DNA from: Escherichia coli
Lineage (GTDB): Bacteria > Pseudomonadota > Gammaproteobacteria > Enterobacterales > Enterobacteriaceae
Reading direction: 5' to 3' (one strand)
Assembly (NCBI RefSeq): GCF_001677475.2
Contig: NZ_CP015229.1
Length of the DNA stretch: 64,000 nt
The notes under the pieces are model-generated. The model searched no databases. It saw only the letters and a program-made list of their open reading frames with translations, and was not told the origin of the DNA. Shown here in pieces: positions 8,342 to 19,418 of the stretch. The position numbers were made by a program, and so were the translations under genes. The first letter of the stretch is position 1, and each line of letters opens with the position of its first letter.

Positions 8342-8353
8342 CTAAAGGTGCAT

Positions 8354-8396
8354 TTTCCCCTCACCCTAACCCTCTCCCCAAAGGGGCGAGGGGACT
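8354..8396. repeat. GC-rich palindromic intergenic element, copy 1
   Basis: cccctcaccctaaccctctcccc aaa ggggcgaggggac; the same 23-nt core recurs at 16753-16775. Sits between convergent entS and fepB, so a likely bidirectional terminator hairpin. Confidence 0.6.
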
Positions 8397-9387: not shown

Positions 9388-9527
9388 AAATCAGCTTCCT
9401 GTTATTAATGAAGTTAATGCTTCTCATTTTCATTGTAACCACAACCAGATGCAACCCCGAGTTGCAGATTGCGTTACCTCAAGAGTTGACATAGTGCGCG
9501 TTTGCTTTTAGGTTAGCGACCGAAAAT

Positions 9528-9546
9528 ATAAATGATAATCATTATT
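9528..9546. promoter_or_regulatory. Fur box in the divergent fepB / entC promoter region
   Basis: Core tgataatcattat (9533-9545) matches the Fur consensus exactly, with partial matches on both flanks. Confidence 0.7.
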
Positions 9547-9575
9547 AAAGCCTTTATCATTTTGTGGAGGATGAT

Positions 9576-13242: not shown

Positions 13243-14404
<1,162 letters not shown>

Positions 14405-14447
14405 GCCCGACAGAATTAAATGAGATTGCAGGAAAACTCGGTTAACG

Positions 14448-14467
14448 GAGTGATCGAGTTAACATTG
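14448..14467. promoter_or_regulatory. Candidate CRP-type site upstream of cstA
   Basis: gaGTGATcgagtTAACAttg resembles TGTGA-N6-TCACA; cstA is a known CRP-dependent gene. Weak call. Confidence 0.3.
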
Positions 14468-14584
14468 TTAAGTTAAATATTGGTTTCAACTCCGATTTAC
14501 ATGGTTGCTGTGTTGTTAAATTGTACAAAGATGTTATAGAAACAAAATGTAACATCTCTATGGACACGCACACGGATAACAACT

Positions 14585-16690
14585 ATGAACAAATCAGGGA
14601 AATACCTCGTCTGGACAGTGCTCTCTGTAATGGGAGCATTTGCTCTGGGATACATTGCTTTAAATCGTGGGGAACAGATCAACGCGCTGTGGATTGTGGT
14701 GGCGTCGGTCTGTATCTATCTGATCGCTTATCGTTTTTATGGTCTGTATATCGCCAAAAATGTGCTGGCGGTTGACCCGACGCGTATGACGCCAGCGGTG
14801 CGCCATAACGACGGGCTGGATTATGTGCCGACGGACAAGAAAGTGCTGTTCGGTCACCATTTTGCGGCCATTGCCGGAGCTGGTCCGTTGGTGGGGCCGG
14901 TGCTGGCAGCGCAAATGGGCTACCTGCCGGGGATGATCTGGCTGCTTGCTGGGGTGGTTCTCGCCGGTGCGGTACAGGATTTCATGGTGCTGTTTGTTTC
15001 CACGCGCCGTGACGGTCGCTCGCTGGGTGAGCTGGTCAAAGAAGAGATGGGGCCAACCGCCGGGGTGATTGCGCTGGTTGCCTGCTTTATGATCATGGTC
15101 ATCATCCTTGCCGTGCTGGCGATGATCGTGGTGAAAGCCCTGACCCATAGCCCGTGGGGAACGTATACCGTTGCGTTCACCATTCCGCTGGCGCTGTTCA
15201 TGGGGATCTACCTGCGCTATCTGCGTCCAGGGCGTATTGGCGAAGTGTCGGTCATTGGCCTGGTGTTCCTGATTTTCGCCATTATCTCTGGCGGCTGGGT
15301 GGCAGAAAGTCCGACCTGGGCACCGTACTTTGACTTTACCGGCGTGCAGCTGACCTGGATGCTGGTGGGTTACGGCTTCGTGGCGGCGGTGCTGCCGGTG
15401 TGGTTGCTGCTGGCCCCGCGTGACTACCTCTCAACCTTCCTGAAAATCGGGACTATTGTCGGTCTGGCGGTAGGCATTCTGATTATGCGCCCGACGCTGA
15501 CCATGCCTGCTCTGACCAAATTTGTTGATGGCACTGGCCCGGTATGGACCGGTAACCTGTTCCCGTTCCTGTTTATTACTATCGCCTGTGGCGCGGTGTC
15601 TGGCTTCCATGCGCTGATCTCTTCTGGCACCACGCCGAAGATGCTGGCGAACGAAGGGCAGGCGTGCTTTATCGGCTACGGTGGGATGTTAATGGAATCC
15701 TTCGTGGCGATTATGGCGCTGGTTTCCGCCTGTATCATCGATCCGGGCGTTTACTTCGCAATGAACAGCCCAATGGCGGTGCTGGCTCCGGCAGGGACGG
15801 CGGATGTGGTTGCTTCTGCCGCGCAGGTGGTGAGTAGCTGGGGCTTTGCGATTACCCCGGATACGCTAAACCAGATTGCCAGCGAAGTGGGTGAACAGTC
15901 GATCATTTCCCGTGCGGGCGGTGCGCCGACCCTGGCGGTGGGGATGGCCTACATTCTGCACGGTGCGCTGGGCGGCATGATGGATGTGGCGTTCTGGTAT
16001 CACTTCGCCATTCTGTTTGAAGCACTGTTTATTCTGACGGCGGTGGATGCAGGTACGCGTGCTGCGCGCTTTATGTTGCAGGATCTGCTGGGCGTGGTGT
16101 CTCCGGGCCTGAAACGGACAGATTCTCTGCCTGCTAACCTGCTGGCAACGGCGCTGTGTGTGCTGGCGTGGGGCTACTTCCTGCATCAGGGCGTGGTCGA
16201 TCCGCTGGGCGGTATTAACACCCTGTGGCCGCTGTTTGGTATTGCCAACCAGATGCTGGCAGGGATGGCGCTGATGCTCTGTGCCGTAGTGCTGTTCAAG
16301 ATGAAACGTCAACGTTACGCCTGGGTGGCGCTGGTGCCAACGGCCTGGCTGCTGATTTGTACCCTGACCGCAGGCTGGCAGAAAGCGTTCAGCCCGGATG
16401 CGAAAGTGGGCTTCCTGGCCATTGCTAATAAGTTCCAGGCAATGATCGACAGCGGTAATATTCCGTCGCAGTATACTGAGTCACAACTGGCGCAACTGGT
16501 GTTCAACAACCGTCTGGATGCCGGGTTGACCATCTTCTTTATGGTGGTTGTGGTGGTTCTGGCGCTGTTCTCGATTAAGACGGCACTGGCGGCATTGAAA
16601 GAGCCGAAGCCAACGGCGAAAGAAACGCCGTATGAGCCAATGCCGGAAAATGTCGAGGAGATCGTGGCGCAGGCGAAAGGCGCGCACTAA
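14585..16690 (+). CDS. cstA: Carbon starvation protein A (peptide/pyruvate transporter family)
   Basis: 701-aa polytopic membrane ORF; characteristic N-terminus MNKSGKYLVWT. Confidence 0.95.
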   Translation: MNKSGKYLVWTVLSVMGAFALGYIALNRGEQINALWIVVASVCIYLIAYRFYGLYIAKNVLAVDPTRMTPAVRHNDGLDYVPTDKKVLFGHHFAAIAGAGPLVGPVLAAQMGYLPGMIWLLAGVVLAGAVQDFMVLFVSTRRDGRSLGELVKEEMGPTAGVIALVACFMIMVIILAVLAMIVVKALTHSPWGTYTVAFTIPLALFMGIYLRYLRPGRIGEVSVIGLVFLIFAIISGGWVAESPTWAPYFDFTGVQLTWMLVGYGFVAAVLPVWLLLAPRDYLSTFLKIGTIVGLAVGILIMRPTLTMPALTKFVDGTGPVWTGNLFPFLFITIACGAVSGFHALISSGTTPKMLANEGQACFIGYGGMLMESFVAIMALVSACIIDPGVYFAMNSPMAVLAPAGTADVVASAAQVVSSWGFAITPDTLNQIASEVGEQSIISRAGGAPTLAVGMAYILHGALGGMMDVAFWYHFAILFEALFILTAVDAGTRAARFMLQDLLGVVSPGLKRTDSLPANLLATALCVLAWGYFLHQGVVDPLGGINTLWPLFGIANQMLAGMALMLCAVVLFKMKRQRYAWVALVPTAWLLICTLTAGWQKAFSPDAKVGFLAIANKFQAMIDSGNIPSQYTESQLAQLVFNNRLDAGLTIFFMVVVVVLALFSIKTALAALKEPKPTAKETPYEPMPENVEEIVAQAKGAH

Positions 16691-16706
16691 AGTCAGAGTG
16701 AGGGGG

Positions 16707-16736
16707 GAATGTTGGCGAATGTTGGCGAAAGTTGGC
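16707..16736. repeat. Tandem 10-mer repeat, three copies
   Basis: gaatgttggc gaatgttggc gaaagttggc, lying between the cstA stop and the second copy of the GC-rich palindrome. Confidence 0.6.
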
Positions 16737-16748
16737 ATGGTGCCGAGG

Positions 16749-16793
16749 GTTCCCCCTCACCCTAACCCTCTCCCCGGTGGGGTGAGGGGACTG
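16749..16793. repeat. GC-rich palindromic intergenic element, copy 2
   Basis: ccccctcaccctaaccctctcccc ggt ggggtgaggggac; same core and orientation as 8354-8396. Confidence 0.6.
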
Positions 16794-16853
16794 ACCGAGC
16801 GCGTTGATAGCTATTAATGCACTCTCTCAGCAATCTGATTACCGGAGGTATTG

Positions 16854-17051
16854 ATGTTTGATTCACTGGCAAAAGCCGGAAAATATTTAGGTCAGGCGGC
16901 GAAGCTGATGATTGGTATGCCTGATTACGACAACTATGTCGAACATATGCGGGTTAACCATCCCGATCAAACGCCGATGACCTACGAAGAGTTTTTCCGT
17001 GAGCGGCAGGACGCGCGCTACGGTGGAAAAGGTGGCGCGCGCTGCTGCTAA
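16854..17051 (+). CDS. ybdD: Small DUF466-family protein paired with cstA
   Basis: 65 aa from the ATG at 16854, with GGAGG upstream; conserved cstA-ybdD pairing. Confidence 0.85.
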
Positions 17052-17060
17052 ATTTGTACG

Positions 17061-18149
17061 TCAGGCTTTAAACGATTCCACTTTTTCGAACGCTGCACGC
17101 AACGTATCTGGTGTCAGCGTGACTGGCAGGTAATGAATGGACTCCACCGGACGTAAGGTGTGGGCAATCACTTTGTCGATCTCCGCCTGATTATTGATAT
17201 CCACTTCCAGCTCCGCCAGCGTAGTCGGCAGATGAAAACGTTGATACGCCCCGGTTAATTGCGCCAGCACATCATCCTGACCCAGCAAGGCGCTTTGCAC
17301 CAGAATGCCGTAGGCGACTTTGGTGCCGTGGAGAAACTTCTCGGTTTGCGGCAAAACGGTCAGACCGTTATGCACGGCATGGGCCGCCGCCACACGCGTA
17401 AAACGATCGCCCAGACCACCGACCATCCCACCACCAGCAATAATAGCATCCACCACATCGCAAAATGATTGCGTTAACTGTTGTTTTTGCTGATCGCTCA
17501 GCGCCTGTTCGCTACTGTTTAACAAGACGTCGCGAATGGCCTGCGCATTATTGATCCCCAGACGCACGGTTAGCGGCAAGGTTTCTGGTTGCGGAGCCAG
17601 CACCACCGCTTCATACCATTTCGCCAGCGTGTCACCGATCCCCGCCAGCAGATATTCTTGCGGCGCATTGAGGATAATCTCTGGCTCCACCAGCACCATA
17701 AAATTGGCGTCGTCGAAAATCTCATAATGCAGCGCCTGTCCGGCATCGTTATACCAGACGGAGAGCGGTGTCCAGGCGGCGCAGGTGGCGGCGATCGTCG
17801 GAACGGCAACAAACGGCAGACCGAGACGGCGGGCGAGGGCTTTCGCGGTGTCGAGCAGTGCGCCGCCGCCGACGCCAATCACCACGCTGCGATCGTCACC
17901 GGACTCAGCCGCCAGGTGCTGTACATCGCTTTCGCTGCAATGACCGCGAAACAAAATATGCTTTGCACCAGGCAGTTGAAACGCTGGTGGAAGTCTGATT
18001 TGCGCCGCAGCAATGGCGCGTTCGCCGTAGATCCACACCGCGCGAGAAAGCTGTTCATCAGTGAAAAAGTCGTGCAGGTGATTGAAACTTCCTGGATGTG
18101 AAAAGTAGTTAGCCGGGCCGACGACGACGCGGATAGGATTGTGAGGCAT
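17061..18149 (-). CDS. ybdH: Iron-containing alcohol/hydroxycarboxylate dehydrogenase family protein
   Basis: 362-aa ORF with glycine-rich NAD-binding stretch GVGGGALLDTAK. Confidence 0.9.
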   Translation of the reverse strand: MPHNPIRVVVGPANYFSHPGSFNHLHDFFTDEQLSRAVWIYGERAIAAAQIRLPPAFQLPGAKHILFRGHCSESDVQHLAAESGDDRSVVIGVGGGALLDTAKALARRLGLPFVAVPTIAATCAAWTPLSVWYNDAGQALHYEIFDDANFMVLVEPEIILNAPQEYLLAGIGDTLAKWYEAVVLAPQPETLPLTVRLGINNAQAIRDVLLNSSEQALSDQQKQQLTQSFCDVVDAIIAGGGMVGGLGDRFTRVAAAHAVHNGLTVLPQTEKFLHGTKVAYGILVQSALLGQDDVLAQLTGAYQRFHLPTTLAELEVDINNQAEIDKVIAHTLRPVESIHYLPVTLTPDTLRAAFEKVESFKA

Positions 18150-18257
18150 GTTGTGTTGTCCTTATTGTTTTATTTAGACATCTAAACGTCTTGATTGCCA
18201 AATACTAGCATCGTGTTATAGTGCCTTCAACACGCAACTTCGTCAGGCACAATAAAA

Positions 18258-19418
18258 ATGACAAATAACCCTCTGATTCCACAAAGCAAACTTCCACAAC
18301 TTGGCACTACCATTTTCACCCAGATGAGCGCGCTGGCGCAGCAACACCAGGCGATTAACCTGTCGCAAGGCTTTCCTGATTTTGATGGTCCGCGCTATTT
18401 ACAGGAGCGGCTGGCGTACCACGTTGCCCAGGGGGCAAACCAATACGCGCCCATGACCGGCGTGCAGGCCTTGCGCGAGGCGATTGCTCAGAAAACGGAA
18501 CGTTTGTATGGCTATCAACCAGATGCCGATAGCGATATCACCGTAACGGCAGGGGCGACGGAAGCGTTATATGCAGCGATTACCGCATTGGTGCGCAATG
18601 GTGATGAAGTGATCTGCTTTGATCCCAGCTATGACAGTTACGCGCCCGCCATCGCGCTTTCGGGGGGAATAGTGAAACGTATTGCACTGCAACCACCGCA
18701 TTTTCGCGTGGACTGGCAGGAATTTGCCGCATTGTTAAGCGAGCGCACCCGACTGGTGATCCTCAACACCCCGCATAACCCCAGTGCAACTGTCTGGCAG
18801 CAGGCTGATTTCGCCGCTTTGTGGCAGGCAATTGCCGGGCACGAGATTTTTGTCATTAGCGATGAAGTTTACGAGCACATCAACTTTTCACAACAGGGCC
18901 ATGCCAGCGTGCTGTCGCATCCGCAGCTGCGTGAGCGGGCGGTGGCAGTTTCTTCATTTGGCAAGACTTATCATATGACCGGCTGGAAAGTGGGTTATTG
19001 CGTTGCGCCAGCGCCCATCAGTGCCGAAATTCGCAAGGTACATCAGTATCTGACCTTTTCGGTAAATACCCCGGCGCAACTGGCGCTTGCCGATATGCTA
19101 CGTGCAGAACCTGAGCATTATCTTGCGTTACCGGACTTTTATCGCCAGAAACGCGATATTCTGGTGAATGCCTTAAGTGAGAGTCGGCTGGAGATTTTAC
19201 CGTGCGAAGGTACATACTTTTTGCTGGTGGATTACAGCGCCGTGTCTACGCTGGATGACGTTGAGTTTTGCCAGTGGCTGACGCGGGAGCACGGTGTAGC
19301 GGCGATTCCGCTGTCGGTGTTTTGCGCCGATCCCTTCCCCCATAAACTGATTCGTCTCTGTTTTGCCAAGAAGGAATCGACGTTGCTGGCAGCAGCTGAA
19401 CGCCTGCGCCAGCTGTAG
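18258..19418 (+). CDS. ybdL: PLP-dependent aminotransferase (methionine aminotransferase family)
   Basis: 386 aa; PLP-lysine motif SFGKTYHMTGWKVGY. Confidence 0.9.
   Translation: MTNNPLIPQSKLPQLGTTIFTQMSALAQQHQAINLSQGFPDFDGPRYLQERLAYHVAQGANQYAPMTGVQALREAIAQKTERLYGYQPDADSDITVTAGATEALYAAITALVRNGDEVICFDPSYDSYAPAIALSGGIVKRIALQPPHFRVDWQEFAALLSERTRLVILNTPHNPSATVWQQADFAALWQAIAGHEIFVISDEVYEHINFSQQGHASVLSHPQLRERAVAVSSFGKTYHMTGWKVGYCVAPAPISAEIRKVHQYLTFSVNTPAQLALADMLRAEPEHYLALPDFYRQKRDILVNALSESRLEILPCEGTYFLLVDYSAVSTLDDVEFCQWLTREHGVAAIPLSVFCADPFPHKLIRLCFAKKESTLLAAAERLRQL

Follow-up and report, generated by a model that had tools for sequence, protein, structure and literature searches.

The composite element that follows cstA in this stretch of Escherichia coli DNA belongs to a catalogued repeat family set in a layout derived from paired repeats, and is no new regulatory RNA. 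Judged by its sequence, the palindrome that ends the composite is the known E. coli intergenic repeat variously called BoxC, PIT, TMECO type A or HPG1. The G-run and the three tandem 10-mers that precede it form one module with it (16692-16803), in which a truncated left partner, reduced to its last block, is followed by a spacer expanded by the 10-mers and by a complete right type A element. Sense RNA of this module is predicted to adopt a single dominant and very stable Y-shaped fold of two hairpins. We are modestly inclined to the view that this BoxC-derived module, with its pair layout, acts passively, its hairpin structure defining or protecting the 3' end of the cstA transcript, and that the number of 10-mer units has no function.

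The cstA-ybdD spacer

In the window (the whole 64,000-nt stretch of DNA analysed here), the cstA stop codon and the ybdD ATG (16854) are separated by a 163-nt spacer that holds the G-run, the 10-mers and the palindrome (Table 1). The products of the two genes cooperate as a pyruvate transporter (PMC5847655). An earlier note on this DNA had described the three parts as a composite element between cstA and ybdD; all of them are present at the positions given in Table 1, they are not explained by chance, and together they constitute one BoxC-derived module. Co-transcription of cstA and ybdD, which had also been assumed, is compatible with our scans of 16400-17200, which detected no sigma-70-type promoter and, on either strand, no intrinsic terminator-like site. 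The module itself lacks the form of an intrinsic terminator, that is, a GC-rich hairpin with a direct U-tract, and hairpin 2 is followed by ACUGACCGAG. An Rfam scan of 14000-18500 at E <= 1 returned no family above its gathering score; two sub-threshold chance matches were to mir-423, at 25 bits (cut-off 71), and to bxd_5. A sigma-54-like or CsrA-like reading of the 10-mer, considered by eye, was dropped as unsupported. Upstream, within cstA, a 9-nt tandem repeat (TGGTGGTTC, 2.3 copies, 16542-16562) codes for the valine run of ...FFMVVVVVLAL... and looks like an ordinary coding repeat.

Table 1. Positions of the genes, BoxC parts and predicted RNA elements in the window.
Feature	Position	Strand	Remarks
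Second BoxC type A copy	8353-8394	-	entS-fepB spacer
cstA CDS, pyruvate/proton symporter	14585-16690	+	701-aa ORF; RefSeq annotation of matching E. coli loci
cstA stop codon, TAA	16688-16690	+	
GUCAG, 5' half of closing helix	16692-16696	+	pairs with CUGAC (16791-16795) in the MFE and centroid structures
G-run arm GTGAGGGGGGA, 5' arm of predicted hairpin 1	16698-16708	+	homologous to GGGGTGAGGG, last block of the left BoxC partner
Three tandem 10-mers, GAATGTTGGC, GAATGTTGGC, GAAAGTTGGC	16707-16736	+	tip of predicted hairpin 1
Left flank of BoxC type A, TGGTGCCGAGGGTT	16738-16751	+	family consensus roughly (A/T)GTGCYGGCCTGTT
3' arm of predicted hairpin 1, TTCCCCCTCAC	16750-16760	+	complement of the third BoxC block
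BoxC / PIT / TMECO type A core	16753-16789	-	G-rich strand reads CCCCTCACCCCACCGGGGAGAGGGTTAGGGTGAGGGG; minus-strand pattern match; Table 1 of PMC4666352
Predicted hairpin 2: CCCUCUCCCC, loop GGU, GGGGUGAGGG	16766-16788	+	one U-U mismatch at 16771/16783
Right flank of BoxC type A, ACTGACCGAGCGCG	16790-16803	+	family GGGGACYGNYYGNGC; includes CUGAC, 3' half of closing helix
ybdD Shine-Dalgarno, GGAGG	16844-16848	+	no predicted pairing with the module (accessibility, 11 alleles)
ybdD CDS, 65 aa, YbdD/YjiX family, CstA partner	16854-17051	+	ORF list; RefSeq annotation of matching loci; PMC5847655

The palindrome is a BoxC type A element

Both the BoxC repeat family and its K-12 copy between cstA and ybdD are already known and catalogued. 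BoxC is the oldest of its names, followed by PIT element and, later, TMECO type A. Table 1 of the paper on the HPG1 motif, a putative G-quadruplex-hairpin-duplex (PMC5100583), contains the K-12 cstA-ybdD copy as no. 19. Reported copy numbers for K-12 run from 23 to 33, and the K-12 cstA-ybdD copy is too degenerate for the list of 23 in PMC4666352. A full-length BoxC spans ~51-59 bp (PMC5172473).

In the window, the palindrome arms CCCCTCACCC (16753-16762) and GGGTGAGGGG (16780-16789) are 100% complementary. The earlier note took this palindrome to be the second copy of an element, and the 22-mer CCCTCACCCTAACCCTCTCCCC does have exactly two occurrences in the window (8358 and 16754), with none expected in 100 shuffles; both copies are intergenic, as in a multi-copy intergenic family. 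The three-block pattern of type A, defined on one strand as CCCTC(G/T)CCC(C), a loop of 3-4 nt, GGG(G)AGAGGG, TTA and GGGTGAGGG(G), was found on the minus strand of 16753-16789, with block 1 carrying an A in place of the G or T of the family. When 16754-16774 is reverse-complemented, it gives the exact 21-mer GGGAGAGGGTTAGGGTGAGGG that identifies HPG1 (at most one mismatch allowed). We also aligned 12 K-12 BoxC type A copies with both window copies, and the sequences on either side of the core, TGGTGCCGAGGGTT on the left and ACTGACCGAGCGC on the right (16790-16802), align with the flanks of the K-12 copies.

Block 1 of the module reads CCCTCACCCC, as opposed to CCCTCGCCCC or CCCTCTCCC in the family, where the commonest K-12 type A variant is CCCTCGCCCC-loop-GGGGAGAGGGTTAGGGTGAGGGG (PMC4666352, Table 1). 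A T at 16783, which gives GGGGTGAGGGG, stands where every fetched E. coli allele has a C, so that the outer palindrome of BoxC becomes a perfect 10-bp inverted repeat in the window.

The G-run and 10-mers derive from a paired BoxC layout

At five sites in K-12, a type A and a type B element stand as an inverted pair, with a short spacer of about 16-27 nt between their GGGTGAGGG blocks, which face one another. We compared the cstA-ybdD alleles with three of these pairs (fepB-entC, ygfF-gcvP and alx-sstT). The alleles align with the pairs over their full length, and the block GTGAGGG is invariant. The spacers of the K-12 pairs read TTAATGTTCGCACCAGTGCTGGCTGTT and TAAATATTCGCGCCAGTGCCGGCCTGTT, and the one-unit cstA allele reads GGAATGTTGGCATAGTGCCGAGGGTT at this place; where the 10-mers sit in cstA-ybdD, the K-12 pair spacers read AATGTTCGCAC / AATATTCGCGC. 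From this alignment, the G-run (GTGAGGGGGG, 16698-16707) corresponds to the last block of a left partner that lacks its other two blocks, which are missing because the cstA stop codon occupies their place. By the same sequence comparison, the 10-mers arose by tandem duplication of part of the canonical inter-element BoxC spacer. A complete inverted pair of type A plus type B is absent: the left partner consists of its last block GAGTGAGGGGGG only, and what lies 5' of that block is the cstA stop codon and coding sequence, while the spacer and the right element align well. The module is thus a derivative of the pair layout and not a complete pair.

Tandem Repeats Finder reported 3.0 copies of a period-10 repeat at 16707-16736 (95% matches, score 53, consensus GAATGTTGGC), in which the third 10-mer, GAAAGTTGGC, is a T-to-A variant. 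The proposed complementarity between the G-run and a downstream C-run is real, as the G-run region is 87% complementary to 16752-16766 over 15 nt and includes a perfect 7-mer (GGGGGAA/TTCCCCC).

At K-12 ygfF-gcvP, the sequence CAATGTTGGCACG, ~20 nt 5' of the type B element, matches the 10-mer region of cstA (AATGTTGGCATG) at 11 of 12 positions. This match sits on the outer side of the BoxC pair, and may be due to chance or belong to a longer ancestral unit. AATGTTGGC also has a 9-mer match 5' of the ygfF-gcvP pair.

The module RNA is predicted to fold into two hairpins

The minimum free energy of the sense RNA of 16688-16808 is -60 kcal/mol (z -4.22), a stability reached by 0 of 200 shuffles. 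In hairpin 1, the G-run pairs with CCCCCUCAC at predicted probabilities of 0.97-1.0 and the 10-mer region makes an imperfect inner stem; hairpin 2, with pair probabilities of 0.90-0.93, is predicted in all BoxC-bearing alleles. The same architecture was predicted in all 11 alleles that we folded, and added 10-mers lengthen only the tip of hairpin 1. Pairing between the outer palindrome arms, which would be the alternative to the G-run helix, received a probability of 0.0 and carried a penalty of 7.4 kcal/mol when forced. None of the 11 alleles is predicted to pair the module with the Shine-Dalgarno sequence or AUG of ybdD, both of which pair only locally. Across seven distinct Escherichia arm pairs, 92% of the cells in hairpin 1 are paired and one double-sided change is present, a covariation level that 129 of 500 shuffles also reached.

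The cstA-ybdD spacer differs among E. coli strains

The earlier note had called for a comparison of repeat copy number among strains. The cstA-ybdD spacer was found, at varying length, in 5,419 of 5,426 complete E. coli genomes, and counting by allele-specific queries gave 0 to 3 units over these 5,419 genomes, so that the number is not invariant. Two units are present in about 3,860 genomes (71%) and one unit in about 320 (6%), about 134 of which are without the BoxC core. About 1,189 genomes (22%), of B2 type such as Nissle and ST131, have neither a unit nor the core. Three units, the allele class of the window, occur in about 49-54 genomes (1%), and a synthetic query for a 4-unit allele found none in the 5,419. 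Overall, the BoxC core is present in about 76% of E. coli genomes and absent from about 24%.

Because the same unit occurs at the same place in 0, 1 or 2 copies elsewhere, the tandem repeat is a genuine duplication. All three fully read 3-copy alleles (the window, L002 and L003) carry the identical T-to-A variant in the third unit, which suggests, from three sequences only, a single old event and not a fast-changing repeat. The three-unit allele is a rare strain variant. The closest complete-genome match to the window spacer is 97.8% identical over 180 nt, none is exact, and the full-length window-type spacer was found in seven genomes only. The locus also does not behave as a hypermutable tandem repeat or contingency locus, given that the 5,419 genomes have only 0-3 units and that the predicted fold keeps the same base, and leaves the ybdD ribosome-binding site unaffected, whatever the number of units.

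The 11 fetched alleles differ in unit number (0-3), in the presence of the BoxC core, in the presence of a REP and in a 9-nt deletion variant. YbdD is annotated as WP_000460431.1 in 10 of them and as WP_000460435.1 in the remaining one, L011. A REP sequence, recognised by the GCCGGATAAGGCGTTCACGCCGCATCCGGC consensus, is absent from the window spacer and present in K-12-type alleles and in E. albertii. In the K-12-type alleles, GCCGGATAAGGCGTTCACGCCGCATCCGGC lies between BoxC and ybdD, in place of TATTAATGC (16804-16853 of the window). Around the ybdD Shine-Dalgarno sequence, the alleles fall into three families, GGAGGTATTGATG, GGAGGCCAAGATG and GGAGGTTTAGATG.

A hairpin between cstA and ybdD is the rule in Enterobacteriaceae

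Outside E. coli, the spacers of E. albertii, E. whittamii and two further Escherichia lineages contain only a hairpin (GAGTGAGGGG...CCCCTCAC) and a REP, without the BoxC core. A hairpin is kept both in the E. coli alleles and in the Escherichia species that lack the core. The core-less outgroups, together with core-less B2-type E. coli, favour gain of the BoxC core within part of E. coli; the B2-type alleles retain both BoxC flanks, which favours loss of the core by internal deletion.

We then compared 70 cstA-ybdD spacers from species-representative Enterobacteriaceae. The 67 spacers of at least 40 nt all fold at -18.6 kcal/mol or below, with a median z of -3.65 relative to dinucleotide shuffles and z below -2 in 57 of 67. 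Their hairpins are unrelated in sequence and comprise BoxC-like blocks (in 17), REP-like palindromes and unique hairpins, some with T-runs. The other three spacers, from Kosakonia and one Enterobacter, are only 14-20 nt long and have no hairpin. With a strong hairpin of unrelated sequence in 67 of 70 spacers, such a structure is normal at this place irrespective of its source, and this near-universality suggests a deliberate uncoupling of the two partner genes on the level of RNA. The element is nevertheless dispensable, as the core is absent from about 24% of E. coli genomes and the three short spacers are hairpin-less.

RNA 3' ends map just past the module and two other BoxC copies

In published Term-seq data for K-12 MG1655 (PMC7815308, supplementary files 1 and 3), an RNA 3' end with 1,686 reads in LB at OD600 2.0 maps to 632098(+), 84 nt upstream of the ybdD ATG. 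On the K-12 sequence this end reads ...CUGACCGAG-3'; it lies 4 nt past the closing-helix CUGAC and upstream of the K-12 REP, and coordinate transfer via the K-12 allele (L016) places it at about 16799 of the window. The peak is weak, was recorded in one condition only, and belongs to the K-12 allele, with two copies plus a REP, not to the window allele. By the filter rule of PMC7815308, 632098 would have a start site no farther than 200 bp upstream. An end 4 nt past the module makes some effect on read-through or 3'-end formation plausible. The influence on read-through proposed in the earlier note thus gains weak support from the K-12 end, while the pairing switch through which it was thought to work does not.

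Two other BoxC-A copies are followed by Term-seq ends in the same data. The end at 164636(+) is 5 nt past the hrpB copy, and the end at 3781065(+), which carries a Rho-region flag and a low intrinsic-terminator score, is 4 nt past the lldD copy. The hrpB, lldD and cstA copies are all transcribed with the C-rich side first. Listed 3' ends are absent from ten other expected BoxC positions in K-12. Given 3,110 listed ends, we estimated a chance of ~0.007 per 20-nt strand-specific window, so that three ends at about 13 expected positions is far above chance, with the caveat that 3' UTRs are enriched in ends anyway. Earlier in vivo work observed no promoter or terminator activity of PIT/BoxC elements (summarised in PMC4666352).

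On the minus strand, a Rho termination region has its peak at 631994 (Rho score 4.49, p 7.9e-6; PMC7815308, supplementary file 2), 7 nt beyond the module on its other side and equivalent to ~16685 of the window. This Rho region concerns antisense transcription from the hcxA side through ybdD, so that the module may be a marker of RNA ends in both directions of transcription.

Possible functions of the module

In the account that we favour, the cstA transcript is predicted to form hairpin 1, with the 10-mers at its tip, and hairpin 2, both closed by the GUCAG:CUGAC helix. The double hairpin would be a passive barrier between cstA and ybdD that sets and shields an RNA 3' end, most likely in that 3' exonucleases would be stopped by it once termination or cleavage has taken place further downstream. 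The cstA message would be stabilised in this way, part of the transcripts would end at the structure, and ybdD would be expressed from transcripts that run on through it. Because CstA and YbdD jointly make up the pyruvate transporter, it is plausible that such a hairpin uncouples the level of one mRNA from that of the other. The number of repeats is probably neutral, and would be a functionless lineage marker born by duplication at an indel-prone BoxC locus.

The strongest competing account treats the module as neutral repeated DNA, in which BoxC has spread and decayed and the hairpin, the 3' end and the duplication are all incidental, with no effect on cstA or ybdD. We regard this as possible, if somewhat doubtful. 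The core comes and goes among strains (about 76% with, about 24% without), yet in the fetched examples with and without it the annotation shows CstA and YbdD intact; BoxC positions at entS-fepB and fepB-entC also differ between the window and K-12, TMECO loci are reported to be hypervariable, no part in regulation has been found for them, and the covariation in hairpin 1 is not significant for its seven arm pairs. Neutrality does not readily account, however, for a strong hairpin in every Escherichia allele examined and in nearly all Enterobacteriaceae spacers despite unrelated sequences, nor for Term-seq ends 4-5 nt past three BoxC-A copies. A related view places the activity in the DNA, where the G-rich minus strand would form an intrastrand triplex or G-quadruplex that either regulates transcription, as a quadruplex-hairpin-duplex switch, or stalls replication and so generates indels such as the 10-mer duplication. 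Consensus oligonucleotides of this sequence family do form a triplex or quadruplex in vitro by CD and NMR, variability is in excess around TMECO loci, and the spacer is an indel hotspot (0-3 units, core and REP present or absent, a 9-nt deletion variant), so this reading may explain why the locus is indel-prone. Instability accounts for the origin of the alleles, however, and not for a function; no regulatory effect in vivo has been reported, and the G-rich strand, being the template of cstA, would not be the strand freed by cstA transcription. As an account of what the module does, we consider a DNA-level role very unlikely.

The mechanism put forward in the earlier note was a switch, in which the G-run, repeats and palindrome compete in long-range pairing and thereby govern read-through or ybdD translation, with repeat number as the tuner. 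Two possible partners for CCCCUCACCC do exist in the sequence, and repeat number does differ among strains. The predicted fold leaves almost no room for competition, though, since the alternative pairing has no probability and a high cost, and the favoured helix is also the one transcribed first. Control of ybdD translation fares no better, as in no allele is the module predicted to touch the Shine-Dalgarno sequence or AUG. Added units merely extend the tip of hairpin 1, and no Rfam family scored above threshold. We therefore hold a switch to be extremely improbable.

A passive hairpin at cstA could be one case of a wider rule, namely that BoxC elements, which have long been seen as without function or as curiosities of DNA structure, are RNA-level elements that define and protect 3' ends in the manner of REP, and that a spacer hairpin is needed across Enterobacteriaceae to set the ratio of the transporter to its small partner. 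We think this generalisation rather unlikely. If it is true, strains that differ in BoxC, REP and 10-mers would differ heritably in how strongly they express the pyruvate transporter. The 3' ends mapped 4-5 nt past three BoxC copies offer a modest lead to a REP-like role for a family without an accepted function, and the natural alleles with 0, 1, 2 and 3 units or without the core form a ready series in which to study the role of the hairpin.

Comparison with known systems

The module shares with BoxC/TMECO type A (PMC4666352) its three blocks, TTA loop and flanks, its intergenic and multi-copy nature and a locus that is hypervariable among strains; it also aligns with the inverted pairs that the family forms across spacers of about 16-27 nt. 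It differs from BoxC family members in its block 1, which makes its outer palindrome perfect, and from BoxC pairs in having a left partner reduced to the last block and a spacer in which a 10-bp unit occurs three times. With HPG1 (PMC5100583) it has in common the exact 21-mer and a C-rich upstream block. That paper proposes a regulatory switch at the DNA level, whereas the evidence for the module concerns a hairpin in the sense RNA, the G-rich strand being antisense to cstA.

A functional parallel may be the REP/BIME element REP325 between yjdM and yjdN (yjdMN), a palindromic 3'UTR element that stabilises the upstream message and attenuates read-through (bioRxiv 10.64898/2026.03.23.713779). 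Like REP325, which is linked with upstream-biased expression, the module is a GC-rich palindrome between co-oriented genes that has no U-tract, is associated with RNA 3' ends and varies in location among strains. The two belong to unrelated sequence families, however, and the window spacer has no REP, whereas K-12-type alleles have one just downstream of BoxC. The module resembles VNTR or contingency loci in its tandem units of strain-dependent number. It differs from them in having only 0-3 units, in lying outside promoter and coding sequence, in showing no sign of rapid switching, and in a variant unit common to the three fully read 3-copy alleles, which points to a single origin.

A second BoxC copy in the ent-fep cluster

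The other BoxC type A copy in the window lies between the convergent genes entS and fepB. In K-12, entS and fepB are 3 bp apart and have no BoxC between them, and a BoxC A+B pair is found in the fepB-entC spacer; comparison of 9388-9563 with K-12 showed that the window lacks this pair. BoxC positions thus vary among strains inside the ent-fep cluster.
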